Origin: a virus
Taxonomy: Duplodnaviria; Caudoviricetes
IMG/VR virus record: IMGVR_UViG_3300027734_000078
Span: 1-59,498 of that record
DNA: 59,498 nucleotides
Direction: 5' to 3' (one strand)
Below, piece by piece: positions 4,490 through 18,928 of the stretch (its first letter is position 1; the number at the start of each line of letters is the position of its first letter). The position numbers and the translations under genes are program-made. The notes below the pieces were generated by a model. That model was given only the letters and a program-made list of their open reading frames with translations. It was not told where the DNA came from and ran no database searches.

Positions 4490-4490
4490 A

Positions 4491-5153: not shown

Positions 5154-5176
5154 GTACTTTTTTGATACAATGAGTT

Positions 5177-6042: not shown

Positions 6043-6049
6043 ATTTTGT

Positions 6050-6255: not shown

Positions 6256-6284
6256 TGGACTTTGTCTAGTTTCTATGCTATAAT
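6256..6284 (+). promoter_or_regulatory. early sigma70 promoter P1
   Basis: TGGACT-17 nt-TATAAT with extended -10 (ATGCTATAAT), same spacer style as 7894 and 10969. Confidence 0.7.
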
Positions 6285-6327
6285 TCTTCACATGAACTGA
6301 AAAATTTATATGTCTTTTCTTTTCATT

Positions 6328-6359
6328 GGGACTTCTGCGTAATTTTACGCACTTGTCTT
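6328..6359 (+). repeat. 32-nt hairpin element, copy 1
   Basis: GGGACT TC TGCGTA ATTT TACGCA CT TGTCTT. Confidence 0.7.
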
Positions 6360-6396
6360 ATTTAATTAAACTTTAAAAACGAAAGCGAGAATTATT

Positions 6397-7080
6397 ATGT
6401 CAAAGAAACCTAGCCTTAAAAAAGCAGTAGCAGAAGTTAAGAAAGCAGTATTTTGTATGAGTGCAGATGATACGCTATCACTTGAACAGGGCGTTATTCA
6501 ACCCTTTGAACAGGTTGTAGCTAATCATAAGAACAGCGAGGAATTAAAGCATTTAATAGCCGAGAACCTAGCGTCAATTCTAGGAACTACACCGAGCTAT
6601 GAATTATGGAACGCTTGTCACGATAACACCGAGAAAGCCGTTATAACTTCAATGAAAATTGAAGAGGCTACATTCAAAAATATTTGGGCTAGTATCGTTA
6701 AGTTATTGGGTATCATGTATGACCTAGAAAAGCCTAAAGCGAAAAGTGTAGAGGCTATCAAAAAGGCAACGCAGAGAGAGAAAGCAAAATCAATGACGGG
6801 ACTTGATGGAAAAGATTATCTAGTTTCCGAAGTAGATGACGCTAACCTTGAAAAACTTTTTGGACTTCGTGGAAAAGCAGAACTTGTGAATAGAGAACTA
6901 GCTAACGAAAAAGAAAGCGAGAAATTGCAAAAACTAGCGAGAACAGCTAACGCAAATAATTTTCTAGCTAGAATGAAAACTCTAGTAAAAGAAAAATATG
7001 ACTTCGCTATGTATTTGGATACTAACCTAGCAACCTTTGAAATAGAATTTGAGGATAGTAAACATAATCCTGCGAAGTAA
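6397..7080 (+). CDS. hypothetical protein, first early gene (monocistronic)
   Basis: 227-aa ORF with its own promoter and terminator. Confidence 0.8.
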   Translation: MSKKPSLKKAVAEVKKAVFCMSADDTLSLEQGVIQPFEQVVANHKNSEELKHLIAENLASILGTTPSYELWNACHDNTEKAVITSMKIEEATFKNIWASIVKLLGIMYDLEKPKAKSVEAIKKATQREKAKSMTGLDGKDYLVSEVDDANLEKLFGLRGKAELVNRELANEKESEKLQKLARTANANNFLARMKTLVKEKYDFAMYLDTNLATFEIEFEDSKHNPAK

Positions 7081-7104
7081 ACGAAGTTAAAAAAGTAATA
7101 TTAA

Positions 7105-7138
7105 GGGATAACGATTAACTTCGTTATCCCTTTTTTTT
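7105..7138 (+). terminator. intrinsic terminator
   Basis: GGGATAACGA-TTAACT-TCGTTATCCC followed by T8. Confidence 0.9.
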
Positions 7139-7199
7139 CGTCAAAATTTTGGGGACACAATCCCCACGATGACCGTGACAATAAAGAGTAGGTGAGGGG

Positions 7200-7860
7200 G
7201 ACTTATATAACGAAGTTAACTTTGTGGCTACATCTTTTGGCAAGTTGTATTATAACACGCATAAGTTGTATTATAACAAGGTCTGTTTTATTACTTAATA
7301 ATCAAGGACTTACAGACTTGACTTTGTTGGGGTAGTGTTTTATTACTGTAAAATCAATGACTTACGCAAGTGATTAAAAAAAGGCAAGTGCTTGTATTAT
7401 ATATATATTTTATATTATAACATTATAACACGACTTTTGAAAAAGGCTTCAGCCAGAAAAAAGTTTTACTAATTTAACTTCGTGGCATAGCCGATTTTAT
7501 AAATTTCCCTGCCCTTTCTCCCAGCCCACGCAATGCTGTTTAGCGTGTTATAATGTATTATTACTTATAAATCAATGACTTAGCCTGTTATAGATGATTG
7601 GACTTTGTCAATACTTCTGTTTAAGTGTTTTATAATCAAAGACTTATCGTGTTATAAATGAATGGACTTTGTCAATAACAAAGTTAACAAAGCTAATGAA
7701 ATCAAGCACTTGGTATTATAACACGCACCTTGATTTTTCAGAGACAAACCCCTACAAACTATAGGGACAAAATTTGGTGGTGACCGTTCGTTCGTCTAGT
7801 CGGTGAGCCTTAAATTTTTAACCTTCCCTTGAAACCAATCCACGAAGTTAACCAAGTTAA
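7200..7860. repeat. non-coding region of interleaved repeats (IHF-consensus, TTATAACA, CGAAGTTAA)
   Basis: AATCAAnnnnTTR at 7300, 7352, 7570, 7634, 7700. ATTATAACAC-like repeats in both orientations. No ORF. Confidence 0.8.
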
Positions 7861-7893
7861 TTAAATCCCCCCCTATATATAAAGACATCTACC

Positions 7894-7922
7894 TTGACAA
7901 TGTCAACTAGCTATGCTATAAT
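7894..7922 (+). promoter_or_regulatory. consensus sigma70 early promoter P2
   Basis: TTGACA-17 nt-TATAAT with extended -10. The -35 lies within the palindrome TTGACAATGTCAA. Confidence 0.9.
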
Positions 7923-7973
7923 AATATTCATGCGTGGGGTATTCCGCATATAAGAAATGACTTATTTAACTTC

Positions 7974-8005
7974 GTGACATCTGCGTAATTTTACGCAATT
8001 GTCAC
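7974..8005 (+). repeat. 32-nt hairpin element, copy 2
   Basis: GTGACA TC TGCGTA ATTT TACGCA AT TGTCAC. Confidence 0.85.
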
Positions 8006-8026
8006 TTTTTGGAAAGAGAGAGCATT

Positions 8027-8149
8027 ATGACTAGTATTTATGATTGGTGGGTTATTAACAGAAGTTTTGATGGTGGTTATACTTTGACTAACTTAGCCCT
8101 GTATCAATTAATGGCTTATGATTTATGTTTAAAAGGAGAGCAATCATGA
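8027..8149 (+). CDS. small hypothetical protein (40 aa)
   Basis: MTSIYDWWVINRSFDGG...KGEQS. Purine-rich RBS, and the stop overlaps the next ATG. Confidence 0.6.
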   Translation: MTSIYDWWVINRSFDGGYTLTNLALYQLMAYDLCLKGEQS

Positions 8150-8325
8150 ACGGATATATTGCGTTGTATTTAGGTGAGAAGTATGAGATACAAGCTGACG
8201 ATGTTTGGTCAGCTAAACAGAAAGCTTTGAAAGATTTACAAGTATCTAAAAAGAAAGCATGGCAAGTATCTATTCATTTAGCCGAAGTGAATGGTGCTGA
8301 TTATAAACATACGGCTGACTTTTAA
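8146..8325 (+). CDS. hypothetical protein
   Basis: AGGAG RBS, start MNGYIALY. Confidence 0.7.
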   Translation: MNGYIALYLGEKYEIQADDVWSAKQKALKDLQVSKKKAWQVSIHLAEVNGADYKHTADF

Positions 8326-8335
8326 GGAGAACGAA

Positions 8336-8434
8336 ATGATTAGTATTTATGATTGGTATATAATGGGAGTCTGCGTATTTTTAGTAGTCGCTTATGTGGT
8401 ATTAATTTATTTAGATAGGGGAGATAAAAAATGA
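8336..8434 (+). CDS. small membrane protein (32 aa)
   Basis: MISIYDWYIMGVCVFLVVAYVVLIYLDRGDKK with TAAGGAG RBS and ATGA coupling to the next gene. Confidence 0.6.
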   Translation: MISIYDWYIMGVCVFLVVAYVVLIYLDRGDKK

Positions 8435-8577
8435 GTGATATTACTTATATCTTTTTGCAAATGTTATTGTTGTTGGCTTATGGTTGCTATGTTGCCTATC
8501 GTGTAGGTTATAAAAAAGGGCAAGATAGTGTATGGAAAAAAGTGAATGTATTTAAAACATGGAAGGAAGTCAAATGA
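8431..8577 (+). CDS. small membrane protein (48 aa)
   Basis: MSDITYIFLQMLLLLAYGCYVAYRVGYKKG..., GGAG RBS, ATGA coupling. Confidence 0.6.
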   Translation: MSDITYIFLQMLLLLAYGCYVAYRVGYKKGQDSVWKKVNVFKTWKEVK

Positions 8578-8753
8578 AAACGAAACCGATATTTAAAACA
8601 CAAGCATCACCAAGCTATAAAGGTTATGACAGGGAAATTTACATGTCAGAATATACACCTATAAACAAAGAGCATTACAGACGATTGAGAACTTGTGCAG
8701 TTGTGTCTGTAGGTATCAATATCTTTTTACTACTTGTCATGGTTATAAGATGA
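8574..8753 (+). CDS. hypothetical protein with C-terminal TM helix
   Basis: ORF track, ATGA-coupled start MKTKPIF. Confidence 0.65.
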   Translation: MKTKPIFKTQASPSYKGYDREIYMSEYTPINKEHYRRLRTCAVVSVGINIFLLLVMVIR

Positions 8754-9082
8754 ACATAGACCAAGTAAAAGAATATGTGACCACGCAGTTAAAGTCGTAT
8801 AGGGTTAAAGATATCCTAGATAACTTTAGTGACAAAGAGTGGTTGAGTATGTATAAACAGATAGCACCGACCAAGCCACACGAAGTGCAACGCAGACTTA
8901 TTGACTATGCAGTTATGGAGTTAGATAAGTTTAGGTATGTCTTATATAAAGAAAGGCACTATGAAGATTTACTCATAGACAAAGCCTGTCTTGAGTGTTT
9001 GAAGTGTGAAGATGTATCCTGTGCCGAGAGGAAGTATTATGTCAGACGACCCGATAGAAAAGGAGAAAACAATGAGCAATAA
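8750..9082 (+). CDS. hypothetical protein, Cys-rich C-terminus
   Basis: ATGA-coupled start MNIDQVKEY, contains CLECLKCEDVSC. Confidence 0.65.
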   Translation: MNIDQVKEYVTTQLKSYRVKDILDNFSDKEWLSMYKQIAPTKPHEVQRRLIDYAVMELDKFRYVLYKERHYEDLLIDKACLECLKCEDVSCAERKYYVRRPDRKGENNEQ

Positions 9083-9317
9083 AATCACAATAGTATTAAG
9101 TATCAACTCTGATACTGTGTCTCGGTTTTTGTTTGATGACTACATAAACGCTTGTGCTGACGCAAATTTGATGATAAGGTATGAGCCGTATACATCAGAT
9201 ATGTATGCAGAACTCAATGACAAAGCACTAGAAATTGAGAAAAAACAAGCACTTACAGAACTTGAAAATGAAATCTTAAACAATGTAGCCTGTGTCAATG
9301 GCTCTTGCGAAGACTAA
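9072..9317 (+). CDS. hypothetical protein
   Basis: AGGAG RBS before MSNKITI, ends CVNGSCED. Confidence 0.65.
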   Translation: MSNKITIVLSINSDTVSRFLFDDYINACADANLMIRYEPYTSDMYAELNDKALEIEKKQALTELENEILNNVACVNGSCED

Positions 9318-9428
9318 TATAAAGGAGAACTCTATGAAACAATCCATCTATACCTTTTTAATAAAGGCACACTAGTCTACTTCTAGACTAAATTTAAACT
9401 CGTATAAACAAATATAAAGGAGGTCAGT

Positions 9429-9815
9429 ATGATTGACCAAGCTTTGCTTTGTCTCGCCACGACCATATACATGGAGTCTGCTCATGAGCCACATCAGGCA
9501 CAAGTAGCAGTAGGCTATGTGTTAATGAGGCGAGCCGACTTTGAAAAAAAGAATGTGTGCCTTGAAATGAAACGACCATATCAGTTTAGTTGGTATGGGT
9601 TAGTGCAACCACCTTCGGTAATAAGACAGGAATATTTTGATATTGCTTACAAGGTATTACATCGCCTTGAAGTTGATTATAGTTATGGTGCAACAAACTT
9701 CCATGACACTACCATAAAGAAACCAAAGTCATGGACAAGATTAGAACCTGTAGTTAAATGGTCTAATCTTATTTTTTATAAACAAAAAGGAGAGAGATAT
9801 GCAAGTGCAAATTGA
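9429..9815 (+). CDS. SleB/Hydrolase_2 family cell wall hydrolase
   Basis: CLATTIYMES, AVGYVLMRR, YQFSW, GATNFH and LIFY motifs. AGGAGG RBS. Confidence 0.85.
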   Translation: MIDQALLCLATTIYMESAHEPHQAQVAVGYVLMRRADFEKKNVCLEMKRPYQFSWYGLVQPPSVIRQEYFDIAYKVLHRLEVDYSYGATNFHDTTIKKPKSWTRLEPVVKWSNLIFYKQKGERYASAN

Positions 9816-10074
9816 ACTAAACGCAGACCAAATAGAACAGATATTGTGTGAAGGTTTGAAACAAGCTTACGAAGTTAACTTAACTTTTCCCGATGAACCC
9901 GACTATGAAAAGCTACACCAAGCGTTTCAAGTATTACTTCCATACTTTATAGGGGAAGAAAACTATTTGCAGTTTGTAGTTAAAGCTAAAAAGAGTGCTG
10001 ATAAAGTATTAGAGCATGACAAGAAGTTAAAGAAGTATGGTAAAGCTTTAGCTGACGCATACGGGGGGCTATGA
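9799..10074 (+). CDS. hypothetical protein
   Basis: 91-aa ORF with AGGAG RBS. Confidence 0.7.
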   Translation: MQVQIELNADQIEQILCEGLKQAYEVNLTFPDEPDYEKLHQAFQVLLPYFIGEENYLQFVVKAKKSADKVLEHDKKLKKYGKALADAYGGL

Positions 10075-10178
10075 TGTCTAAACTAGATGTTGTATGCCTA
10101 GCCATAATTATAATTACAATACTATGGTTTATTGGGGGAGTTATTGAATGTCTATACCATTTACTTATGCTGTTGTAG
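10074..10178 (+). CDS. small hydrophobic protein (34 aa)
   Basis: MSKLDVVCLAIIIITILWFIGGVIECLYHLLMLL, coupled to the upstream stop. Confidence 0.5.
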   Translation: MSKLDVVCLAIIIITILWFIGGVIECLYHLLMLL

Positions 10179-10327
10179 ATGATGACGGAGAAATCTTACG
10201 CAAGTATAGATGGAGTGCTAAAGAGGCGAAGTGGCATAAAGAACAAGGGAGTAATGTCATTAAGCTAGAAGTCATTAAAGAAGTAGAGGTAGATGTTATG
10301 TCTTTAGTAGGAGAGTGTTTATTCTAA
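10148..10327 (+). CDS. hypothetical protein (59 aa)
   Basis: MSIPFTYAVVDDDGEILRKYRW...GECLF with GGAG RBS. Below the ORF-track cutoff. Confidence 0.65.
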   Translation: MSIPFTYAVVDDDGEILRKYRWSAKEAKWHKEQGSNVIKLEVIKEVEVDVMSLVGECLF

Positions 10328-10539
10328 TGTATACCAAGCTAGATGATTGGCGTCATGCCAACAAAGTTAACGAAGTTTTATTAAAAGAACCTACTGCTAC
10401 CAAAAAACATATTAGTAGTGTGTTAGGACTTTGCGATGCACGATTAAACTATTTGCATAGTCAAGGACTTATTAACATACAACATACTTATAGGAGAACT
10501 TATGAACAAAGAACAAAGACGAGCCATACGCAAGTTTGA
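10327..10539 (+). CDS. small putative HTH protein
   Basis: TAATG coupling. PTATKKHISSVLGLCDARLNYL resembles a winged HTH. Confidence 0.5.
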   Translation: MYTKLDDWRHANKVNEVLLKEPTATKKHISSVLGLCDARLNYLHSQGLINIQHTYRRTYEQRTKTSHTQV

Positions 10540-10768
10540 AACATGGCAGTTGAGAAAGTTTGCGTCAAACGCAAAAAAGGGTTATCACTTTTTCCAACCC
10601 GATAGCGTGCCGAAACCTACACCCCGTTCTGCTTACGAAGCTTGGCGTGGGGTATATACAAATGGGGACAGTGACCGTAGACAAGAGAAGTATATGACAT
10701 GGACAATCTATGCGTTTGCGTTTGCGTATGTTGCGTTTTTAATTTGGAGAGAATATGTATTTATGTAA
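10502..10768 (+). CDS. hypothetical protein with C-terminal TM helix
   Basis: AGGAG RBS, hydrophobic C-terminus. Confidence 0.65.
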   Translation: MNKEQRRAIRKFETWQLRKFASNAKKGYHFFQPDSVPKPTPRSAYEAWRGVYTNGDSDRRQEKYMTWTIYAFAFAYVAFLIWREYVFM

Positions 10769-10949
10769 ATGTGGGAACGAGATAGCTGATGAACGCATAG
10801 CCATAGGTTATCATGTGTGTCTTAAGTGTGGAGAGAAGAACGCACTTAATTATAAACATACGATTGTGCCTATGCCGAAGTCAAACTATATTGTTGTAAC
10901 TGATTTAGAACTACTAAAAGGGCTTAATTCTTCACACAAAAGTAAGTAA
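10755..10949 (+). CDS. DksA/TraR-like C4 zinc-finger protein
   Basis: CKCGNEIADERIAIGYHVCLKC. Confidence 0.65.
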   Translation: MYLCKCGNEIADERIAIGYHVCLKCGEKNALNYKHTIVPMPKSNYIVVTDLELLKGLNSSHKSK

Positions 10950-10968
10950 TTTTTTTGAGACTTTTGAC

Positions 10969-10997
10969 TTGACATTGTCAAGTAGGTATGCTATAAT
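10969..10997 (+). promoter_or_regulatory. consensus sigma70 early promoter P3
   Basis: TTGACA-17 nt-TATAAT with extended -10. The -35 lies within the palindrome TTGACATTGTCAA. Confidence 0.9.
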
Positions 10998-11038
10998 AAT
11001 ATTTGTAAGAGTAGTAAAAGTAGTATGTATTTTAACCT

Positions 11039-11070
11039 GTGACAATTGCGTAAATTTACGCACATGTCAC
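11039..11070 (+). repeat. 32-nt hairpin element, copy 3
   Basis: GTGACA AT TGCGTA AATT TACGCA CA TGTCAC. Confidence 0.85.
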
Positions 11071-11090
11071 TTTTTTTATGGAGAGCAATC

Positions 11091-11261
11091 ATGAAACAGG
11101 ATATAAAAAGCGAGCAGTATCAAGCCAAGTTATTAGGTGAACTATTCAAATCATATGGGTTAAATCATGTAACCCCTATCCCTTCCGAAACAAATTACAA
11201 ACTAGCAGTATATCTAATGAAAACCAAAGGAGAGAAAAATGCAAAACATCTTTCCAAATAA
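11091..11261 (+). CDS. hypothetical protein
   Basis: GGAG RBS before MKQDIKSE. Confidence 0.6.
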   Translation: MKQDIKSEQYQAKLLGELFKSYGLNHVTPIPSETNYKLAVYLMKTKGEKNAKHLSK

Positions 11262-11670
11262 ACAAGAAAAAGAAACACTACTGACGCAGTTAAATCTGCT
11301 AGGTGCAAAGCATGTGTATGTAGAGTTTAGAGGTGGAGGTGATGAAGGGCAAATAGAAGGTGTCTTTTATAGAGATAGGAATGATGATGTTCACGACATA
11401 CCTAGTGACATGATTGCTTGGACACAAATTGCCTATGGTGATAAGCCCCTTGAAACAAAACAGATGTCGTTATATGAAGCCCTTGAAGACTTATGTAGTC
11501 GTGCATTAGATGGCACAGGGTTGGATTGGTATAACAACGAAGGTGGTCAAGGTGAGTTTACGATTGACTTTACTGAAAGCCCTCCAAAGATAAGCTTGAA
11601 TGTCGGTATCAATCATATGTCAACAGATGATTATACCTACGACATGGACGATGAGGAGGACGAAATATAA
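11239..11670 (+). CDS. acidic protein, DUF6878-like
   Basis: V.F.GGGDEGQIE and DWYNNEGGQG motifs, family recalled from memory. Confidence 0.55.
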   Translation: MQNIFPNKQEKETLLTQLNLLGAKHVYVEFRGGGDEGQIEGVFYRDRNDDVHDIPSDMIAWTQIAYGDKPLETKQMSLYEALEDLCSRALDGTGLDWYNNEGGQGEFTIDFTESPPKISLNVGINHMSTDDYTYDMDDEEDEI

Positions 11671-12011
11671 TGAATACTCATTACCATTCTAAAACATCTG
11701 TAAAGAAGTGGGGAGGTGTTGAGGCAGACTATCAACCTATCCATGATTGGTTTGATGCAACCAAAGAATGTTTTGCTGATGCAAGACACAGGGCAATTCG
11801 TCATCACTCACAGGGTATCTTTGAATGTGAAAGACAATTCGGGTTATTCATTGTGAATAGTGATGGTCGTGAAGTGCCTACAAGACTTATCGGGGAACAA
11901 CATGTTAAAGAAGATTGTGGTGGGTGGATACCTAGCATGCAAGATTGGCTTATTAACATGAAGTTTGTTAGTTGGATGAACAGAGGTTATGACATGAAAG
12001 AAGGAGAATAG
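11670..12011 (+). CDS. His-rich protein, DUF6915-like
   Basis: H..SVKKWGG, IHDWFD.TK, RHRAIRHH and EQHVKEDCG motifs. Confidence 0.6.
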   Translation: MNTHYHSKTSVKKWGGVEADYQPIHDWFDATKECFADARHRAIRHHSQGIFECERQFGLFIVNSDGREVPTRLIGEQHVKEDCGGWIPSMQDWLINMKFVSWMNRGYDMKEGE

Positions 12012-12012
12012 C

Positions 12013-12882: not shown

Positions 12883-12899
12883 TTCCACGCAAATGTCTT
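12868..12899 (+). repeat. 32-nt hairpin element, copy 4
   Basis: GAGACA AA TGCGTA ATTC CACGCA AA TGTCTT. Confidence 0.75.
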
Positions 12900-12920
12900 T
12901 AACCTTAAGGAGAAAGCAAG

Positions 12921-13967
12921 ATGCAACAAGAAATCAGTTTGAAACAAGCAGAAGAGTTGATTGCAACAGTCGGTCGTGATGTTACAGTTCATCTCAAAGG
13001 TCAGCCAGGCATTGGCAAGTCATCTATATTGAAATCATTAGCTAAACGATTTCCCGACCACACACCTGTGTATATAGATTGTGCTGACTTAGATTTGGGC
13101 GACCTAGCTATGCCTGCCATGAACCATGAGAGCAAGACTACTACATTCTATCCGAATGAACGCTTTGCTATTCATGACAACAAGCCTGTCATCATCATGC
13201 TAGATGAGATAACAAAGGCAAGCGAACCTGTTAAGAATATGTTATTGCCTGTCATGCTAGAGAGAAGGTTAGGTGCAGTTAAGTTTCACCCCGACTCTAT
13301 TGTATATTCAACAGGTAATCTTACAACAGATGGTGTAGGTGACACGATGAAGGCTCATGCCAAGAACAGATTGACGGCAGTCATTGTGCGTAACCCTAAT
13401 GATGATGAGTGGATTAATTGGGCTATTGATAACAACATAGCACCCGAAGTTGTAGCGTGGGTTAAACAATTTCCTCATGCCCTAGCATCATATACAGATG
13501 ACTCACAGAAAGAGAACATGTATATCTACAATCCTAGAAAACAGCAAGAGGCATTTGTATCGCCTCGTTCGTTAGAGAAAGCATCATTCATTGTTAAGAA
13601 CAGAGCAACACTAGGTGAAGATACTACCTTGACTGCACTTGCAGGCACATTGGGCGAGTCAGCGGCTAGGGATATGTCTGCTTACTTTAGTTTAGCTGAT
13701 GGACTACCGACCAAAGAAAGTATCTATCAAGAACCCGACAAGGCTCAGTTGCCTAACGACCCTGCGGCTCGAGTAATTCTAGTGATGAGAGAACTTATGA
13801 CAATCACAGACAAACATATGGATGCGTGGGTAACTTATCTTCAACGCTTACCAATGGAGATACAAGCATTGTTTGCAGTCAACATGATGGCATCATCACG
13901 CAAACAGATTGCGGCTACCAACAAGTCGTTCATTGATTGGGCAGTTAAGAATAACCAATACTTCTAG
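12921..13967 (+). CDS. MoxR-like AAA+ ATPase
   Basis: Walker A GQPGIGKS, Walker B IIMLDEITKA, sensor TGN and SPRS. Confidence 0.88.
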   Translation: MQQEISLKQAEELIATVGRDVTVHLKGQPGIGKSSILKSLAKRFPDHTPVYIDCADLDLGDLAMPAMNHESKTTTFYPNERFAIHDNKPVIIMLDEITKASEPVKNMLLPVMLERRLGAVKFHPDSIVYSTGNLTTDGVGDTMKAHAKNRLTAVIVRNPNDDEWINWAIDNNIAPEVVAWVKQFPHALASYTDDSQKENMYIYNPRKQQEAFVSPRSLEKASFIVKNRATLGEDTTLTALAGTLGESAARDMSAYFSLADGLPTKESIYQEPDKAQLPNDPAARVILVMRELMTITDKHMDAWVTYLQRLPMEIQALFAVNMMASSRKQIAATNKSFIDWAVKNNQYF

Positions 13968-13975
13968 GAGGATAT

Positions 13976-14098
13976 ATGACGGACGAATTTTTAGATTGGC
14001 TTAATCAATGCCCTAACCAATGGTTAAGGCTTGAAGATACAGAAGGCACTGTTACATATATGTTTTATAAGGAGAATAGTGATGGCACTAACGAGTGA
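13976..14098 (+). CDS. small hypothetical protein (40 aa)
   Basis: MTDEFLDWLNQCPNQW... with AGGAGG RBS. Confidence 0.6.
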   Translation: MTDEFLDWLNQCPNQWLRLEDTEGTVTYMFYKENSDGTNE

Positions 14099-15233
14099 GC
14101 AAAGAGTCACGAAGTCCCACATAGCTATAATGCGTAGCAAACAGTTCTGTATGTTTGCAGGTGTGTTATCGGTGGGCAAGGTAAACTTTACGGAAGACTT
14201 ACCGACTGCGGCAACCAATGGTCGTGATGTCATGTATAACCCAAAGTTTATTGATACATTGAATGACAAAGAACTAAACTATGTTGTGTTGCATGAAGCG
14301 TTGCACAAGGTGTATCAACATATGCACCTATGGAAAAAGCTATGGAAAGAAAATCCCATGCTTGCAAACATGGCGGCTGACTATGTTGTGAACTATGCAA
14401 TACATGAAGCTGATGCTGATAGTGAGATTGCCAAACGACCCGACTCAGCGTTGTTTGATATGGCTTACAAGGGCATGACTACTAAACAAATCTTTGACAT
14501 GCTTAAGAAAGATAGTAACTTTGTTAAGCAACAAGCAGGTCATGATACACATGATTGGGAAGGTGCTGAAGCTTTATCTGATGATGAAGTTAAAGAGACT
14601 GCCAAGCAGATAGACCAAGCATTACGACAAGGTGAAATTATTCGTGGCAAGATGCAAGGCAATAAGAACAGAGCAGTCAACGAAATACTTGAACCTAAAG
14701 TAAATTGGCGTGAGCAATTGCGTGAGTTCGTCAATTCTACTTGTAAGAACAAAGATAGAACATCATGGAAACGACCACACAAGCGTTTCATTGGGCATGA
14801 CATATATATGCCTAGCATGATAGGTGAGTCTATAGGTCAAGTTGTAGTCGGTATAGATACATCGGGTTCTATTGGTCAGAAAGAACTCAATGAGTTTTTA
14901 TCAGAAGTTGTAGCTATATGTGATGATGTATCCCCATCAAGTATAGAGTTATTGTATTGGGATACTGCAGTTGCAGGGCATGAGACATACAATCAAGGTG
15001 ACTACAAAGCCTTGGTTCAATCTACCAAACCTGCAGGTGGGGGTGGCACTCATGTTGGTTGCGTCAATCAGTATGTTAAAGATAAACGCATACAACCCGA
15101 GGCTATCATTATATTAACAGATGGATATGTAGAAGATGATTGGGGTGGCAATTGGGAATACCCTACACTATGGGCAGTCACAGCACGCCACAACACATCA
15201 CCACATGGTAAGACCATTCATATTGATGAGTAA
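14082..15233 (+). CDS. metallopeptidase-VWA protein (DUF2201-like)
   Basis: TAATNG, LHEALH (HExxH), MIDAS IDTSGSI, GGGGT and ILTDG. Confidence 0.88.
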   Translation: MALTSEQRVTKSHIAIMRSKQFCMFAGVLSVGKVNFTEDLPTAATNGRDVMYNPKFIDTLNDKELNYVVLHEALHKVYQHMHLWKKLWKENPMLANMAADYVVNYAIHEADADSEIAKRPDSALFDMAYKGMTTKQIFDMLKKDSNFVKQQAGHDTHDWEGAEALSDDEVKETAKQIDQALRQGEIIRGKMQGNKNRAVNEILEPKVNWREQLREFVNSTCKNKDRTSWKRPHKRFIGHDIYMPSMIGESIGQVVVGIDTSGSIGQKELNEFLSEVVAICDDVSPSSIELLYWDTAVAGHETYNQGDYKALVQSTKPAGGGGTHVGCVNQYVKDKRIQPEAIIILTDGYVEDDWGGNWEYPTLWAVTARHNTSPHGKTIHIDE

Positions 15234-15241
15234 TATAACCC

Positions 15242-15273
15242 GAGACATTGTATCAAAAATGATACTTTGTCTC
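15242..15273 (+). repeat. 32-nt hairpin element, copy 5 (inner stem replaced, pairing kept)
   Basis: GAGACA TT GTATCA AAAA TGATAC TT TGTCTC. Confidence 0.75.
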
Positions 15274-15293
15274 TTTTTTCAAGGAGAGAAAAA

Positions 15294-15821
15294 GTGGCAA
15301 TATATTTAAAACAAGAAGTAATGCAGTATACAAAGTCTATAACTATGGAAATAGATTTTAATTTGTTTAGTGATAGGCAGATTAAAAACATAGTAAGACA
15401 AGTTCGTAATGGGAGTGTATCACAAGGTAGGACAATGCCTTCAGCAGTAGCTAGGTGGTTAATTAAAAAGTATCCAATCCCTCACTTCAGTTTTAGCAGA
15501 TGGTATTCTTCATGGAAAAATATTCCAGACGGTCATACATTCTTTAAAACGCTTAAAAATGTAGCATCAATAGCTAAAATTAGTGCGGATTCTTATGACA
15601 TGCGTCACATAGAAACAGATATTGTTAACGCCAACAATCAAACAACATCTACTGAAATGAGAATGTATACCTACGATACAGAAACGGTAAAAGTTTTAAA
15701 GAAAGCTATGCAAATAGATAATGTTATAGAGGGGGAACTGAAAGAGTTTTTAGAAAAGCTACAAAATAAAACTCTTGGTTTGGTTGCTGTTGAATTTCAA
15801 GAATTTGCAGATAGTTATTAA
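15294..15821 (+). CDS. hypothetical protein, paralog A
   Basis: GTG start after AAGGAG, similar to the next ORF. Confidence 0.7.
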   Translation: MAIYLKQEVMQYTKSITMEIDFNLFSDRQIKNIVRQVRNGSVSQGRTMPSAVARWLIKKYPIPHFSFSRWYSSWKNIPDGHTFFKTLKNVASIAKISADSYDMRHIETDIVNANNQTTSTEMRMYTYDTETVKVLKKAMQIDNVIEGELKEFLEKLQNKTLGLVAVEFQEFADSY

Positions 15822-15831
15822 GGAGAAAATT

Positions 15832-16434
15832 ATGTTAAGTAATATTGATATACACAGTAATTTATCAATGGTGGCAAAAAATATAATAGTTAACATTGAT
15901 ACAGAAAACCTTACCAGAAATCAACTAAAGAGAGTAGCTAATCAAGTAGCAAATGGTTATGCAACAAGTGGTAACGCCACAACATCATATATAACTAGAA
16001 GTATATTGCGTGAATATGCTATTCCACATTTTATTGTAGGTAATGAAAGCAATAGTCATATGTCGTGGAAAAGTATAACACCCGACCATCCAATATTTGA
16101 TGAGTTAGCAGGAGCAGTTGCAATTACTAAATTAGTCACTCCCCATCATGAACATCATCAAAGAACTTTGGCAGATGATATAAGAAAATGGGAGCGAATA
16201 TTGGCAGAACGACCAACAACAGGACATGTTGACTTATATAACATTGACCATTTGGTAAGAGACAAACTGCATGCTATTGGTAGAGTTAAAATAGATAAAG
16301 ACCACAAAGTTCACGAAGTTTTAAAAGCCCTACCTGATATGAAAGAGTTTCCTATTGTGCTTGGTCGAGAAGAGTATTCGTATGCTTTACCCTATGAAGA
16401 ACAGGATAAAGATGAGGATGAATACTATGCCTAA
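15832..16434 (+). CDS. hypothetical protein, paralog B
   Basis: TAAGGAG RBS, shares Y.IPHF and SWK.I...H..F..L with the previous ORF. Confidence 0.7.
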   Translation: MLSNIDIHSNLSMVAKNIIVNIDTENLTRNQLKRVANQVANGYATSGNATTSYITRSILREYAIPHFIVGNESNSHMSWKSITPDHPIFDELAGAVAITKLVTPHHEHHQRTLADDIRKWERILAERPTTGHVDLYNIDHLVRDKLHAIGRVKIDKDHKVHEVLKALPDMKEFPIVLGREEYSYALPYEEQDKDEDEYYA

Positions 16435-16681
16435 ACCTAAAAGCGTAACTATATTATCTTGTAAGTTTAGCACTGTTATATCAGTGCGTGACCACAATAA
16501 TGAAGAGTATCGCATGGATTATTGGGCTTTGCATAATGTATTGATGGAGTTAGTAGATACCGATTGGTTTAAAGATAAGAAAGTGAAATGGAAATACAAG
16601 CGTTTGAATTATGAGGAGACATACAAGCACTTATTGTATCACCCTGCAATACATAAACTTATTAACATAGAGGAGAACTAA
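16427..16681 (+). CDS. hypothetical protein
   Basis: ORF track, exact start uncertain. Confidence 0.6.
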   Translation: MPKPKSVTILSCKFSTVISVRDHNNEEYRMDYWALHNVLMELVDTDWFKDKKVKWKYKRLNYEETYKHLLYHPAIHKLINIEEN

Positions 16682-16682
16682 A

Positions 16683-17528
16683 ATGAGTAACATTAGTATA
16701 GCAAGCAGTGCAGTTTTAATTGACTTAAACATATCAATATGGACAGCTAGGAAACTAGATAAGAATGTGTCTAAAGAAATTGATATAAACAAAAACACAA
16801 CCATCAAGGCGGGTAACTATAACAAACATATCCTTGCAGGTTCAGACCAACTAGATGCTATCACAAAGTTAGCTAATGAAATTCGTGATTGGCATGGTAG
16901 ACAAACACTACCTTGGTCAGATACAGGCACAAGGTTATTACCTATGACAAACTTCTTTGACTATAAACAACAGCTAGGGGTATATGAGGCTGAGTTTAAA
17001 TCTCGTATCAATACGTTTATACAACAATACCCAAACATCATTCAGAGTATGGTATATAAACTAGGTAATCTGTTTGATAGGTCAGAGTATCCCGATGCAG
17101 ACAAGATTGAGTCTAAGTTCAATTTGAGATATACTATTATGCCTGTGCCAGAAACAAAGGACTTCCGTGTTGACATCGCAGATGACATACGAGAAGAGAT
17201 GCAAAAGGAATATCAGAAAGCCTATGAAGGTCGTGTCGAAACTGCTATGAGTGATGCGTGGTCTAGGTTGCATAACACCTTAGAACATATGGTAGATAGA
17301 TTAAGTGGTGATGATAAAAAGATATTTAGGAATAGTTTAGTAGATAATGCATTAGAGTTGACAAATCTATTAACAAGGCTTAATGTAACAAAAGACCCTA
17401 AATTAGAGCAAGCAAGACAAGCGTTAGAACAATCTCTAGTAGGTGTAACAGCAGATGATTTAAGAGAAAGTCAAGGGGCTCGACAAGAAATCTTATCGAG
17501 AGTAAATGAAATTATGGAGAGCATATGA
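16683..17528 (+). CDS. DUF3150-like protein associated with AAA/VWA
   Basis: L.IS.WTARKLDK, TLPW...G.RLLP, LG.LF....YP and DFR motifs. Confidence 0.6.
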   Translation: MSNISIASSAVLIDLNISIWTARKLDKNVSKEIDINKNTTIKAGNYNKHILAGSDQLDAITKLANEIRDWHGRQTLPWSDTGTRLLPMTNFFDYKQQLGVYEAEFKSRINTFIQQYPNIIQSMVYKLGNLFDRSEYPDADKIESKFNLRYTIMPVPETKDFRVDIADDIREEMQKEYQKAYEGRVETAMSDAWSRLHNTLEHMVDRLSGDDKKIFRNSLVDNALELTNLLTRLNVTKDPKLEQARQALEQSLVGVTADDLRESQGARQEILSRVNEIMESI

Positions 17529-17833
17529 AAATATTTCATGCAATAGATGAACAATCATCAGTGGTATCTAAAGAGGATAAGGAAAAGATGGCTATACTTA
17601 AACTCGTAGACGTAGGTAAGTATGTAAAGAATGTAGGTATTAGAGATGGTCAATTTTATGTGATTGCAGAAAACAATACAGATGAAATCTATCTAGAGTA
17701 TAAAGCCGCTATGTCTAACATAGACTCTGCCTTTAAACAAAAAATTGATTTTAGAGTGATAGGTCAGAAGACAGCTGAGTTTCACGATAAGAAAGCAGCT
17801 GTTGTGCAAAGACTTATGGAAATCCCAAAATGA
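17525..17833 (+). CDS. hypothetical protein
   Basis: ATGA-coupled ORF. Confidence 0.7.
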   Translation: MKIFHAIDEQSSVVSKEDKEKMAILKLVDVGKYVKNVGIRDGQFYVIAENNTDEIYLEYKAAMSNIDSAFKQKIDFRVIGQKTAEFHDKKAAVVQRLMEIPK

Positions 17834-18126
17834 AACAACCCGTAAAAGAAAAATGGGTTAAGCAACAAGTAGTTAAGATGCTAAAGGCTCGGGGAGTATA
17901 TTATTTTTTCCCCGTTGCTGGTGCATACACAAGTATAGGTGTGCCTGACATTGTTGCGTGTATCAGAGGTAGATTTGTAGGTATTGAATGTAAGGCAGGA
18001 ACTAATCGACCTACAGAATTACAACTACGAAACCTTGAAGCTATACGCGACAATGAAGGGGTAGCTTTAGTTGTAAATGAAAATGATTTAGAAGCATTAG
18101 AACAAAGATTGGAAACATTAACATGA
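17830..18126 (+). CDS. VRR-NUC domain nuclease
   Basis: GVPDIVAC...FVGIECKAG...PTELQ. Confidence 0.88.
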   Translation: MKQPVKEKWVKQQVVKMLKARGVYYFFPVAGAYTSIGVPDIVACIRGRFVGIECKAGTNRPTELQLRNLEAIRDNEGVALVVNENDLEALEQRLETLT

Positions 18127-18542
18127 CAAGATTAAAAACAATTTTAAATAAATACAAGGAGACAAGAATGGCATACAGAACAGGGAAACCTAAAATTAGA
18201 TTGCAAGAAACTTATGCTGATTTTTCTGATGAACAAATGGCTGATATGATGAAAAGAATGAGTCAAGGTCAAGGTGCAGGTCAACCTGCTATCACTGCTG
18301 ACATGGTAAATCACCCACCACACTACACTCAAGGAGGAATGGAGACCATAGATATTATGGAGGCTAAGTCAACCCCCGAAGAGTTTAAAGGACATCTTAA
18401 ATTAACGGCATTAAAGTATTTAACTAGAGCAGGGCATAAAGAAAGTGAATTACAAGATGCTAAGAAGACACAATGGTATGTCAATAGATGGGTTAAAACT
18501 TTAGAAAAAGAAACAGTTAACATTAAAGTTATAGATGAATAA
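18123..18542 (+). CDS. DUF3310 (SaV-like) protein
   Basis: DMVNHPPHYT.GG.ETID...KYL.RAG.K...QD..K..WY. Confidence 0.85.
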   Translation: MTRLKTILNKYKETRMAYRTGKPKIRLQETYADFSDEQMADMMKRMSQGQGAGQPAITADMVNHPPHYTQGGMETIDIMEAKSTPEEFKGHLKLTALKYLTRAGHKESELQDAKKTQWYVNRWVKTLEKETVNIKVIDE

Positions 18543-18691
18543 TGTGGGTATTTAATCTTGCATTAATATCAGGAGTTATGGTAGGCTTAGAACTTAAATT
18601 TCTAGAGAAGAATGCTCCATATACTTTTTCTTTAGTAATAGACCTATTCATAATTCGATTGATATTACAAAAGCTTAAATATGTCAGATGA
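18542..18691 (+). CDS. small hydrophobic protein (49 aa)
   Basis: MWVFNLALISGVMVGLEL...VIDLFIIRL, TAATG coupling. Confidence 0.55.
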   Translation: MWVFNLALISGVMVGLELKFLEKNAPYTFSLVIDLFIIRLILQKLKYVR

Positions 18692-18884
18692 TGCAGATAA
18701 AACGCAAGATAGATTAGAAAAAGAAGATGCTATTCGCCGCAAGGAAATGGATAGCATGAAATATATAAAAGCAACGGGTCACTGTTTAAATTGTGGCACA
18801 AAGCTTAAAGACTTAAGACGTTGGTGTGATAAAGATTGTGCTGACGACTGGGAATACAACGTCAATAGACGCAACCAAACGTGA
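18681..18884 (+). CDS. zinc-finger protein
   Basis: MSDDAD... TGHCLNCG...RRWCDKDC. Confidence 0.7.
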   Translation: MSDDADKTQDRLEKEDAIRRKEMDSMKYIKATGHCLNCGTKLKDLRRWCDKDCADDWEYNVNRRNQT

Positions 18885-18912
18885 CATTTGCGTAAAAATA
18901 CGCAATAGTCAC
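18881..18912 (+). repeat. 32-nt hairpin element, copy 6
   Basis: GTGACA TT TGCGTA AAAA TACGCA AT AGTCAC. Confidence 0.8.
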
Positions 18913-18928
18913 CCACAAGGAGAGAGGT

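Follow-up and report, generated by a model that had tools for sequence, protein, structure and literature searches.

The six hairpins found in this uncultured freshwater phage record are probably the local representatives, in a single genome, of a leader module conserved among relatives and acting as RNA. The window, i.e., the whole stretch of DNA that was analysed, is the full 59.5-kb record (59,498 nucleotides). In order, the module comprises a frequent 5′ TTAACC flank, a two-tier hairpin, a 7–9 nt spacer, a AAGGAGAG Shine-Dalgarno (SD) sequence and the start codon, and it stands ahead of the first gene in each separately controlled early or middle gene block. We propose that the hairpin functions in the transcript, as a folded structure, and that its two stems bear a genome-specific sequence that would be read by a phage-encoded factor, the likeliest being the product of the first early gene (gene 1; Table 1). 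We assign a probability of roughly 45% to this reading, in which the hairpins are RNA operators for a type-specific phage factor, probably the gene-1 protein. The stems change with the fast-evolving first gene in each relative, which suggests a private protein-RNA control code.

Table 1. Hairpin copies and associated features in the window
Feature	Position	Strand	Folding energy	Description
Promoter P1	6256–6284	+		Sigma-70-type, drives gene 1; TGGACT-17-TATAAT, TG extension, 10/12 matches
Hairpin copy 1	6328–6359	+	−12.7 kcal/mol (z −5.6)	Gene-1 leader
Gene 1	6397–7080	+		Hypervariable first early protein, 227 aa; candidate type-specific hairpin reader
Terminator	7103–7139	+		Strong, intrinsic; 12-bp stem and T run; closes gene-1 transcription unit
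Promoter P2	7894–7922	+		TTGACA-17-TATAAT, 12/12 matches, TG extension
Hairpin copy 2 and T5 tract	7974–8010 (hairpin 7974–8005)	+	−17.2 kcal/mol	
Promoter P3	10969–10997	+		12/12 matches, TG extension
Hairpin copy 3 and T7 tract	11039–11077 (hairpin 11039–11070)	+	−15.9 kcal/mol	
Hairpin copy 4 (site A)	12868–12899	+		Gap ahead of AAA/MoxR-like ATPase gene, start 12921
Hairpin copy 5 (site B) and T6 tract	15242–15279 (hairpin 15242–15273)	+	−16.3 kcal/mol	
Hairpin copy 6	18881–18912	+	−15.5 kcal/mol	

The first-pass annotation had placed six elements at 6328, 7974, 11039, 12868, 15242 and 18881, and a sequence search, folding and a covariance model confirmed them, all on the + strand and as the sole copies in the record. 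The inner palindrome TGCGTA-N4-TACGCA occurs four times exactly and once with one mismatch in the window; with up to two mismatches there are six matches, including an unrelated one at 20196, and 100 shuffles gave a mean of 1.82, with six reached in none. Every 44-nt segment examined formed the two-tier hairpin (−12.4 to −17.2 kcal/mol; z −5.6 to −7.2), a stability reached by none of 200 shuffles. With filters off, the covariance model returned only the six sites below E = 0.5 in the window, a self-match by construction since its input rows included these copies. The uniform geometry described earlier (6-bp outer stem, 2×2 internal loop, 6-bp inner stem, 4-nt loop) holds overall, as does the outer-stem covariation (GTGACA/TGTCAC vs GAGACA/TGTCTC), except that three copies deviate in geometry: copy 1, the weakest, has 5–6 outer pairs (two of them G-U), a 3×3 loop and no AACC flank; copy 4 has an A·C atop the inner stem, leaving 5 bp and a 6-nt loop; and copy 6 has an A·A at the inner end of its outer stem.

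As first annotated, three copies are promoter-proximal and three lie in inter-cistron gaps. The former lie about 35 nt into their leaders, and the distances, previously approximate, measure 43, 51 and 41 nt from −10 hexamer to hairpin and 37, 21, 20, 21, 20 and 16 nt from hairpin end to start codon (copies 1–6). The element very probably links several early and middle gene blocks, again as proposed. Copy 2 with its T5 tract forms a terminator-like leader element ahead of a small-gene operon (start codon 8027), and copy 3, with the top covariance-model score (43 bits), lies in the leader of a long operon (start codon 11091). The stop codon of the ORF upstream of copy 4 falls inside the hairpin, copy 5 is located after a DUF2201 VWA/metallopeptidase gene, and copy 6, whose downstream start codon is at 18929, stands before a 64-aa gene and the DNA polymerase A operon.

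Copies 1 and 2 are transcribed, being covered, inside 5′ leaders, by RNA-library contigs from two studies that are identical to the window. Contigs at 6304–6874 (X1) and 6309–6475 (X2) start 13–18 nt past the predicted P1 start and cross copy 1 uncut, another (X1, 7943–8093) traverses copy 2 without a break, and the final contig of the gene-1 unit stops at 7086, before the terminator. Metatranscriptome contigs show presence only, and not RNA strand or ends, and thus their uncut state is weak evidence against cleavage. Promoter-proximal copies may also be leader attenuators, as hinted by the T run that follows 22 of 42 such copies across the family vs 7 of 58 others. The −35 of P2 lies in a palindrome that is conserved across every hairpin type, is unrelated to the hairpin and stays unchanged when the type changes.

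The layout is preserved in at least 60 related viral contigs, in which a small internal loop separates the outer stem from a 6-bp inner stem capped by a 4-nt loop and the SD follows 7–9 nt downstream, with stem sequences that are entirely different between lineages; in distant relatives, helix length and loop layout differ as well. Genomes carry 3–7 copies, three complete relatives having 5, 7 and 6, all within a single 8–13 kb early region, and the copies are syntenic rather than scattered across relatives with 63–98% ATPase identity. Most of these 60 relatives have a hairpin syntenic with copy 4, as do 39 of 39 among those scored. Spacing to the SD is fixed, its core starting 7–9 nt past the hairpin at 57 of 100 sites, and an SD is found within 30 nt at 83 of 100. 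Covariation in homologues, which the first-pass annotation had set as a check, was found: in 81 copies from 17 genomes, double-change cells numbered 303 vs 99, with covariation at all 12 pairs, and 86.6% of cells were paired vs 53.1% when shuffled and 27–43% with partners slid. RNAalifold recovered the two-tier fold unaided, with compensatory changes at 10 of 10 predicted pairs. The element is almost certainly real and selected for its structure, in line with the earlier view that shape is under selection.

Internal-loop dinucleotides avoid complementarity (18/81 and 24/81 complementary vs 37.4 and 33.5 in within-genome shuffles; both positions complementary in 10/81 vs 23.4; as low as observed in 0/5000 shuffles), a pattern also observed on 101 sites. 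Two-arm deviations within genomes numbered 12 vs 2.0 expected, five of them from copy 15242, and kept the pair in 11 of 12. Because the loops are non-complementary and compensation occurs at the level of single copies, a folded single strand is favoured over a double-stranded DNA palindrome. Apical loops show a sense-strand bias (71 C vs 22 G). The G-U pairs that had been taken to mark the plus strand lost this meaning, as the minus strand folds equally well (summed MFE of −91.6 vs −90.0 for plus over the six window copies) and G·T is not commoner than A·C (33 vs 60 family-wide in 101 unique sites; 12 vs 12 among single-arm deviations within genomes). With its place in transcribed leaders, 7–9 nt before the SD, this is very probably an RNA element as annotated, and we consider it probable that the hairpin also acts as RNA.

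Hairpins are homogeneous in type within genomes: stems at sites A and B of the same genome are 90.6% identical (loops, 41%), and between types, stems compared at one and the same site share 35%, the baseline value. Genomes with about 95% identical flanks carry different stems. The window and one relative (L005) are 94.5% identical over 12.5 kb, and in three of the four hairpins in this block the inner stems are wholly replaced, with sharp edges; at copy 18881, both inner arms are replaced and the AAAA loop and 5′ flank are identical. Such in-place replacement outpaces divergence of the flanks about 20-fold and runs in concert at sites 12 kb from one another. Copy 15242 has a swapped, paired inner stem (GTATCA/TGATAC), as first described, but this stem is foreign to the genome and its independent compensatory origin was rejected, as the exact 32-mer occurs in L005, L006 and L008 of a neighbouring lineage; mosaic ancestry or a site escaping the type switch follows. 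As another relative (L031) has a foreign site A, mixed types exist, and imperfect type matching is therefore tolerated. Copies also undergo gene conversion (L005 15952 agrees with the site-B copy along 49 nt), and within-genome homogeneity may therefore need no trans factor. Window–L005 similarity breaks at 7938, 36 nt ahead of copy 2, and a block of L031 that is 93–100% identical to L011 begins just after hairpin 9044 and ends just before the site-B hairpin. Hypervariable genes adjoin hairpins (12013–12882, 32–42% identical across types; 15267–15821, 24–55%) beside genes that are 84–99% identical.

Gene 1 switches together with the stems. Among genome pairs with ATPase identity ≥0.90, gene-1 identity is 0.60–0.79 with the same site-A type vs 0.18–0.42 with a different type, pairs involving L031 being the exceptions, and gene-1 clades agree with hairpin types. 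Its protein is 43% identical to the L005 orthologue, with flanks 87–96% identical at the nucleotide level, and in a comparison over window positions 2670–21509, no long stretch other than the gene body lacks nucleotide similarity to L005. The family sits directly after hairpin 1 in every lineage reaching the region, and scans of 2.9 million viral contigs for the exact hairpin type and for close gene-1 homologues returned the same two contigs. The protein (pI 6.9) matches no Pfam or PHROG family. Its structure model is all-alpha, with residues 1–17 as a disordered tail rich in Lys, gave no significant fold match (Foldseek E above 0.5; best VIA Z of 8.0, to a generic four-helix bundle) and has no recognisable nucleic-acid-binding fold, helix-turn-helix (HTH) included. 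The sole HTH protein found has a recognition helix that is invariant across four types and is therefore not the type reader. Physical linkage and common descent also tie the gene-1 clades to the hairpin types, with only a few independent switches seen. Other causes often make first early genes hypervariable.

The earlier suggestion of a phage RNA-binding regulator as the hairpins' partner gains support, as genome-specific stems switch with a hypervariable first early gene. We consider the chances about even that a type-specific phage factor reads the element, and name gene 1 as that factor tentatively. Gene 1 carries hairpin 1 in its own leader, has its own terminator and diverges in step with the stems. 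Binding beside the ribosome site would then set translation or mRNA fate of the whole set, gene-1 autoregulation included, and at promoter-proximal copies with a U tract it could toggle leader termination on or off. A protein that reads the hairpin, gene 1 as that protein and the sign of its effect are what we infer here.

Alternatively, the hairpins may be RNA signals of which only the shape matters to host machinery, serving to process, stabilise or insulate messages through RNase III-like or RNase E-linked cleavage, protection of mRNA ends or an SD kept free, with within-genome likeness produced by gene conversion or quasi-palindrome template switching instead of a specific reader. This is how the early RNase III sites of T7 and stabiliser hairpins between cistrons work. 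Such a reading, unlikely in our view, fits the conserved geometry with free sequence, the maintained internal loop, the location between gene blocks adjoining the SD, the one clear conversion event between copies (in L005), the tolerance of mixed types and the structure searches with the gene-1 model, which gave no reader protein. It is strained by the pace and concert of stem replacement, and by copy 18881, where both arms changed and the loop did not, an outcome that one conversion patch donated by another copy of the window would not produce; an imported variant would also hardly win four of five resident sites without selection. The helix has just 12 base pairs and the RNA contigs cross copies 1 and 2 uncut, the latter point being weak. 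The RNase III site as in T7 proposed by the first-pass annotation gained nothing, with only 12 pairs and a type specificity that host RNase III leaves unexplained.

It is quite improbable that the 32-bp palindromes are instead duplex-DNA operators at which a dimeric DNA-binding protein of the phage, be it gene 1 or some other, blocks or times elongation past promoters and between genes, as a palindromic analogue of the stoperators of Cluster A mycobacteriophages. Conservation here is confined to the helices, with variable apical and internal loops, and conserved helices with variable loops are unusual where proteins recognise RNA and commoner where duplex DNA is read. Both strands fold equally without G-U bias, the sites lie within transcribed regions at gene junctions, and stoperators are genome-specific sites that co-vary with a fast-evolving regulator (PMC6550527, PMC9283540, as far as the cited passages go). 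However, the spacer dinucleotides are anti-symmetric (AA/AA, TT/TT) beyond chance, copy-level compensation preserves pairing, loop composition is strand-biased, and helix length and loop layout vary in distant relatives; further, no DNA-binding fold, HTH or otherwise, is seen in the gene-1 model, the single HTH protein does not vary in its recognition helix, and the conserved promoter palindrome does not follow type. We regard as very unlikely that hairpins and conserved flanks are recombination or mobile cassettes, i.e., exchange junctions between co-infecting relatives or, in a variant, small selfish palindromes acting on single-stranded DNA with a secondary regulatory role. Both edges of the L031 block, the break 5′ of copy 2 and the hypervariable genes do fall at hairpins, and the PeSL cassettes of T4-type phages offer a precedent (PMC2839356, PMC4122927, in the parts cited). 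Yet the copies are syntenic and stable in number (5–7), no transposase or HUH gene was found in ORF scans, breakpoints survive at gene junctions anyway, and the fixed SD spacing and kept internal loop suggest that the element functions in the mRNA.

RNA operators as proposed here resemble several known systems in part. The lambdoid nut sites (boxA-boxB), found past early promoters and at a junction of genes, have a phage-specific hairpin behind a linear motif that different phages have in common, and the specificity protein N is the first gene of the early operon, with its own site in the leader. Hairpins downstream of early promoters and a first-placed candidate specificity gene with its own leader site recur here, whereas boxB is a 5-bp stem recognised via its loop and our loops vary while stems are specific. 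There are also six copies here vs two, gene 1 resembles no known family, and the window has no clear downstream terminators to override besides the hairpins' own U tracts. The RNase III processing signals of T7 early mRNA and of Bacillus phage SP82 are likewise repeated internal-loop hairpins between early cistrons that are alike within a genome, but the helix here is much shorter (12 pairs), its stems are genome-specific and switch in concert, and the RNA contigs show no cleavage at the two copies that they span (weak evidence).

PeSL elements, repeated early-region stem-loop and promoter motifs, mark module-swap points (PMC4122927, in the part cited), and block edges coincide with hairpins here too; PeSLs are described there as composite terminator/promoter units, whereas a promoter lies about 40 nt upstream of three of our six copies and is absent from the others, and our copies are syntenic and not confined to hyperplastic regions. 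Cluster A stoperators are many intergenic sites in transcribed regions whose consensus evolves together with a fast-diverging regulator and sets the specificity groups (PMC6550527, PMC9283540, same passages), a likeness to our sites and candidate regulator. They are, however, asymmetric duplex-DNA sites for a monomeric repressor of temperate phages, and here the sites are palindromic hairpins with folded-strand signatures and the ORFs scanned included neither an integrase nor a repressor. [quoted passage not shown] Their function is still unknown, and verification is still needed according to PMC12699233. Host and phage group are unrelated to ours, ESAS arms are 17 bp with a 4–13 bp spacer, and the cited sections of PMC3203893 and PMC12699233 describe no covarying two-tier hairpin for ESAS, and no wholesale type switching or co-varying partner gene, both of which are seen here. 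Aca2 and Aca1, the regulators of anti-CRISPR operons, are HTH proteins that also bind a matching promoter inverted repeat (PMC13551039, in the part cited), whereas our candidate reader is non-HTH and all-alpha, the only HTH protein is type-invariant, and the palindrome at the promoter has no relation to the hairpin and stays the same across types. In the same account, these phage regulators bind 5′ UTR hairpins beside the ribosome site and repress translation, and their RNA motifs also occur between operon genes and upstream of neighbouring operons, forming a small regulon, much as the structured hairpins here lie by the ribosome site and inside operons.

All six hairpins that the first-pass annotation had reported in the early region were recovered on the + strand, with three small corrections to individual copies, and every copy folded into the same two-tier structure (an outer stem, an internal loop, a 6-bp inner stem and a 4-nt loop) at -12.4 to -17.2 kcal/mol (z -5.6 to -7.2). 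The inner palindrome is over-represented in the window, and a covariance model run without filters returned the six and no other site of the record (they were among its training rows). Rfam gave no match at the gathering score across the whole window and, at E <=5, two weak and unrelated matches within 6200-19100, none of them on any hairpin.

The record (59,498 bp, estimated completeness 94%, G+C 35-40%) carries its early and replication genes, including many small ORFs, on the + strand between 6397 and 29547 (see table). No near-identity match to positions 6000-20000 was found among GenBank phages, and GenBank phage proteins offered only remote relatives (closest polymerase 34% identical), the ATPase reaching at most 27% identity, to N4-like phages. 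An ATPase search of 185,579 species genomes for the host gave no match; the RNA libraries that contain window sequence are labelled as lake water. With the ATPase protein as query, we obtained 66 viral loci related at 63-98% identity. On the - strand, the polyvalent protein (29726-35959) holds ADP-ribosyltransferase (ART-PolyVal) and LPD38 domains; among five records compared, two have it at 36-37% identity and the other three gave no match.

Positions of hairpins, genes, signals and RNA-library contigs along the phage record
Feature	Position	Strand
Hairpin copy 1	starts 6328	+
Hairpin copy 2	starts 7974	+
Hairpin copy 3	starts 11039	+
Hairpin copy 4 (site A, before the ATPase gene)	starts 12868	+
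Hairpin copy 5 (site B, after the DUF2201 gene)	starts 15242	+
Hairpin copy 6	starts 18881	+
Gene 1 (hypervariable first early gene, 227 aa)	6397-7080	+
DUF6878 and DUF6915 proteins	early region within 6397-29547	+
MoxR-like AAA ATPase	12921-13967	+
DUF2201 VWA/metallopeptidase protein	14082-15233	+
DNA polymerase A	19123-20949	+
PD-(D/E)XK nuclease, SNF2 helicase, DUF927 primase-helicase	early/replication region within 6397-29547	+
2077-aa polyvalent protein, terminase, portal, virion proteins	remainder of record	-
Consensus sigma-70 promoters with TG extension	6256, 7894, 10969	+
Strong terminator	7103-7132	+
RNA-library contigs, set X1	6304-6874, 7943-8093	
RNA-library contigs, set X2	6309-6475, 6479-6798, 6771-7086	

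We inspected 75 nt 5' of the ATPase start codon in 60 loci, and most carried a hairpin of the same layout, with stems unrelated between lineages (e.g., GCGACA/CGTATA, GTGACA/GTTATA, GAACA/CTTACT, GTTCYG/TGCAC and GTCACA/CTCATA); L037, L038, L042-L045 and L048 had no hairpin at this site. When each locus was searched with its own hairpin, 3-7 copies of that lineage's version were found. From 108 distinct 44-mers, we built a gapless alignment of 81 rows (A1), excluding L049, L056 and L060 with their 22 rows (different layout or off centre) and six near-duplicates (L005:12319, L006:899, L006:9131, L011:5244, L029:4729 and L029:9942), and putting in window copy 15242 by hand. The covariation first noticed among the window's own copies extends to these relatives, with double changes at all 12 pairs of A1. 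Pairing held in 86.6% of 972 cells, compared to 53.1% after shuffling and 27-43% when the partners were slid; as the rows were picked as hairpins, the paired percentage is partly built in, which does not apply to the covariation and the slid controls. RNAalifold, given no structure, predicted the two-tier fold from A1 with compensation at 10 of 10 predicted pairs. The covariance model made 222 hits in 69 loci (E <=0.1, both strands counted), and the three complete relatives have 5, 7 and 6 sites, in each case all within one early region of 8-13 kb. A loose geometric hairpin scan was dropped for its high background (68 hits vs 47-58 in shuffles). In L036 and L041, which are phages of the GTCACA type, a family-like hairpin lies inside the gene-1 coding sequence (L036:2221-2252, L041:3985-4016), and the gene-1 leader has a different small hairpin.

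Covariation alone is not decisive here, because a palindrome that covaries between genomes is also expected from a dimeric DNA-binding protein of changing specificity. G-U pairs had initially been taken as a mark of the plus strand, an argument that fails: the minus strand folds equally well, and with sites defined strand-symmetrically (141 of 331 candidates kept, representing 101 unique sites) we counted 33 G.T against 60 A.C wobble pairs (21 vs 34 without the first outer position), while single-arm deviations within genomes comprised 12 G-U and 12 A-C, with no sense-strand signal. The dinucleotides of the internal loop were complementary at 31 and 24 of the 101 sites, compared to 47.5 and 37.5 in shuffles, and shuffling within genomes gave the same direction (18, 24 and, for both, 10 of 81, where 37.4, 33.5 and 23.4 were expected), with 0 of 5000 shuffles as low as observed. 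Here AA stands opposite AA and TT opposite TT, an anti-symmetry that is without reason in a symmetric duplex site and is needed by a hairpin with an internal loop. Compensation was counted within genomes, as the clustering by type chained several types and its double changes were mostly between-type differences; both arms deviated in 12 cases (2.0 expected under independent arms), with the pair kept in 11 of them. The foreign copy 15242 of the window accounts for five of these 12 cases; setting it aside leaves seven, six of them with the pair kept. On the sense strand, the apical loops hold 71 C vs 22 G (background C share 0.45; unique loops 37 vs 16), which is moderate evidence as the flanks are also C-leaning (473 vs 386). 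Together, these four tests speak for a folded single strand with sense polarity, without distinguishing RNA from single-stranded DNA.

The hairpin types (i.e., each lineage's own stem sequence) are nearly uniform within genomes and diverge completely from one type to another. Comparing site A with site B inside each of 16 genomes gave 90.6% identity for stems and 41% for loops. Site-A stems of genomes that differ in type (259 pairs) reach 35%, no more than unrelated sites do (36%); their internal-loop letters agree at 57% (baseline 31%). The near-identical neighbour lineage L005, with an 18.6-kb locus covering window positions 2670-21509, is 94.5% identical to the window over 12.5 kb (9059-21509) and 96% identical on the terminase side, and its inner stems at 11039, 12868 and 18881 are wholly different (TGCGTA vs GTATCA); copy 15242 is the same in both. 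The switches have sharp edges: at 12868, identity continues through the outer stem and the AA. At 18881, both arms differ and the AAAA loop and 5' flank are identical; a single conversion patch from another window copy would import its loop (ATTT or AATT), so that this site, at least, must have changed one arm at a time or through correction templated by the hairpin. L005 does show conversion from copy to copy, as its polymerase-site copy equals its site-B copy over 49 nt.

Exchange also involves larger blocks. The locus L031 carries a block (9091-12690) that is 93-100% identical to L011, holds the L031 site A and has its edges at two neighbouring hairpin junctions, and the other four or five hairpin copies of L031 are of its own type. 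An insertion of ~400 nt after the ATPase gene interrupts this block. One break in similarity between the window and L005 lies 36 nt before copy 2. Two further hypervariable genes of unassigned function abut the hairpins at sites A and B (12013-12882 at 32-42% and 15267-15821 at 24-55% identity, vs five records), with neighbours at 84-99% identity; both lie inside the 94.5% L005 block and so do not follow the switch between the window and L005.

Gene 1 does follow it. Its body (6450-7075) is the only long stretch within window positions 2670-21509 that has no nucleotide similarity to L005, and the two gene-1 proteins are 43% identical. The smaller differences are some small-ORF indels and a window-only HNH/endonuclease VII-like gene (5518-6123, - strand; PHROG 1035 and 26577). 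The latter, with flanks 96% and 87% identical to L005 and a junction of only ~100 nt in L005, looks like a mobile homing-endonuclease insertion. Searching with a gene-1 profile found a member directly 3' of hairpin 1 in every lineage reaching that far, including very distant ones, and the gene-1 clades match the hairpin types (the window, L074 and L075 at 85-96% identity; L009, L011 and L068 at 59-63%; L036 and L041 at 81%; L023, L027 and L029 at 79%). For pairs with ATPase identity of at least 0.90, gene-1 identity was 0.60-0.79 where the site-A type was the same and 0.18-0.42 where it differed, and all three exceptions to the match between gene 1 and site A involve L031. Gene 1 correlated more strongly with the site-A arms (0.62) than the ATPase did (0.42); the comparison with type uses site A only because leader-hairpin picks are unreliable at several loci. 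Across 2.9 million viral contigs, an exact scan for the window-type hairpin and a scan for close gene-1 homologues arrived at the same two contigs, which are also the closest relatives overall.

The gene-1 protein has no Pfam, PHROG or named relative; its 68 homologues in public data include none that is credibly named (one cluster is labelled histidine kinase by its source), and a protein Atlas search returned viral hypothetical clusters only. The AlphaFold model (44 sequences, mean pLDDT 81) is all-alpha apart from a short beta hairpin, which lies between a four-helix bundle (19-115), preceded by a disordered Lys-rich tail (1-17), and long C-terminal helices. Foldseek found nothing at E <=0.001 for this model, and the top score of a wide structural search (Z 8.0) fell on generic helical bundles, uninformative by the tool's own grading, a null that indicates neither a new fold nor a lack of nucleic-acid binding. 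An HU-like hit (a 95-aa "DNA-binding protein" chain, PDB profile E=0.042) was rejected, as the model is all-alpha and has no beta arms, and family members matched no Pfam DNA-binding family. It is thus by position, universality and co-variation that gene 1 becomes a candidate reader of the hairpins. The only recognisable DNA-binding protein, an HTH_3 Cro/CI-type protein (26346-26576), was rejected as the type reader because its recognition helix is identical across four hairpin types; it more likely reads the type-invariant promoter palindrome than the hairpin.

That palindrome (13-15 bp, TTGACA-n-TGTCAA, C/G flanked) encloses the -35 of early promoters (7893-7907 and 10968-10982), is kept in phages of all hairpin types and is independent of the hairpin stems; this conservation led us to reject it as a DNA twin of the hairpin. 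Directly 5' of the gene-1 promoter, positions 6200-6255 hold runs of GGGG(A/T) words (GGGGAC, GGGGTC, GGGGGGGAC), which are kept at the same place in L005, L009, L011, L025, L027 and L029, i.e., in different hairpin types.

How are the hairpins linked to the message? Of 100 unique sites with flanks long enough to score, 57 have an SD core (AAGGAGAG-type) beginning 7-9 nt 3' of the hairpin and 83 have one no further than 30 nt away. About half of the copies, of different types, share a 5' TTAACC flank, which in intercistronic copies often provides the stop codon of the upstream gene. Forty-two copies are promoter-proximal, and most of them begin 33-45 nt 3' of a sigma-70-like -10 hexamer; in the window, three of the six copies have a promoter 41-51 nt before them and three have none. 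A T run directly follows the hairpin at 29 of 100 sites family-wide (22 of 42 promoter-proximal vs 7 of 58 other sites; odds ratio 8, P=1.6e-5), and in the window T5-T7 stands directly after the stem of copies 2, 3 and 5. Any regulation could be of either sign: where a U tract follows a promoter-proximal copy, attenuation or antitermination in the leader is suggested, and the spacing of 7-9 nt to the SD is suggestive of an occluded ribosome site, as shown for Aca2. A -10-like TAACAT after the hairpin was rejected by inspection as a middle promoter, as transcription from it would begin within the SD or beyond it.

Contigs identical to the window were found in two lake-water RNA libraries from two studies (see table). 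They start 13-18 nt after the promoter-predicted starts and end just before the terminator at 7103; hairpins 1 and 2 are spanned unbroken, with one contig reading through copy 2 and the T5 after its stem. Such contigs carry no strand, ends or level, and DNA contamination is possible in such libraries; what they establish is that sequence with the outline of the predicted transcripts occurs in RNA libraries, nothing more. Hairpins 3-6 and positions 7102-7635 are without cover, from which we draw no conclusion. Gene 1 (6304-7086) is the most continuously covered stretch in the two libraries (contig depths 3-8), which fits a strongly expressed first early gene, contig depth being a poor measure. 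Between the gene-1 terminator and promoter P2 (7894-7922) lie 760 nt (7133-7893) without a convincing ORF and dense in direct repeats (ATTATAACACG four times, a ~32-nt unit ending AATCAATGACTTA four times, and TGGACTTTGTCAATA two to three times), which may represent either an iteron-bearing origin or a series of promoter-like units.

Overall, a genome-specific reader best explains how the copies stay alike while changing fast, in concert and in step with one gene. We tentatively propose, with a probability of roughly 0.3, that gene 1 founds a new family of phage RNA-binding regulators without a fold match, that it would read the base pairs flanking the A.A/U.U internal loop, and that protein and hairpin would diversify jointly into specificity types. 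Against a genome-specific reader, it is the helices and not the loops that carry the specificity, genomes of mixed type are viable and independent switches are few. Gene conversion, moreover, is demonstrably active, and an RNA signal recognised by shape only, with its copies homogenised by conversion, is a serious rival.

A duplex-DNA operator, for which palindromes covarying between genomes would be expected as well, is weakened, as the internal-loop and compensation tests speak against it. That the hairpins serve as recombination cassettes agrees with the breakpoints, but the SD spacing and the stable synteny do not fit.

If the proposed pairing of gene 1 and hairpin is true, co-infecting close relatives would be deaf to each other's early-gene controller, in an RNA-level counterpart of heteroimmunity that offers a natural library of orthogonal protein-hairpin pairs. 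Start-linked hairpins and inverted repeats recur in phage early regions (SAS/ESAS, PeSLs) and have, to our knowledge, no established reader. The present family is an unusually clean handle on this question, with dozens of natural stem swaps in flanks that are 95% identical and one co-changing candidate gene. A real pairing would add a new family to the few sequence-specific hairpin readers, explain the concerted evolution of dispersed phage regulatory repeats and provide orthogonal translational or attenuation switches for synthetic biology; if it is not real, the hairpins would still be a well-defined case of very fast, concerted and pairing-preserving turnover of regulatory RNA.

Among known systems, an RNase III signal of the T7 type has been suggested for these hairpins. 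The internal loop is present and maintained, but the hairpin offers only 12 pairs, or 14 stacked positions; RNase III minimal substrates shorter than two helical turns are known, so hairpin length alone does not exclude such a signal. An N4-type hairpin promoter was rejected, as the window ORFs that were scanned include no phage RNA polymerase and the early genes have consensus sigma-70 promoters. The lambdoid nut/N system, which evolves in comparable specificity groups, shares a transcribed hairpin 3' of early promoters (copies 1 and 2 lie in RNA contigs), but boxB has a 5-bp stem and its specificity in the loop, whereas the loops here vary within genomes; gene 1 had no Pfam, PHROG or PDB-profile match to N-family proteins. 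Stoperators likewise evolve in specificity groups (PMC6550527 and PMC9283540).

The start-associated SD motif with an upstream inverted repeat of Cluster K mycobacteriophages (SAS/ESAS), carried by a subset of genes, is alike in architecture only: the 13-bp SAS consensus (PMC3203893) and the 17-bp ESAS arms are unlike the window motif, and the phages are unrelated. Its function is described as still untested in PMC3203893 and PMC12699233. Aca1 and Aca2 are alike in logic, in that a regulator encoded by the phage acts on hairpins in 5' UTRs and between genes, with Aca2 occluding the ribosome site (PMC13551039); however, Aca-type regulators are HTH proteins matching their motif, with the same inverted repeat in promoter DNA, whereas gene 1 is not HTH and the promoter palindrome here is unlike the hairpin stems. 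In PeSLs, a stem-loop terminator is joined to an early promoter, whereas the window has its promoters 41-51 nt upstream of three copies and none at the other three; the likeness, though in a small sample, is that edges of swapped modules lie at hairpins (the L031 block and the window-L005 break), in line with the breakpoint association reported in PMC4122927 and PMC2839356. No prior description of this hairpin element was found in the open-access literature. New here are that the two-tier geometry is maintained, that nearly identical genomes switch type in concert, and that one candidate reader, belonging to a protein family not described before, co-varies with the hairpins.
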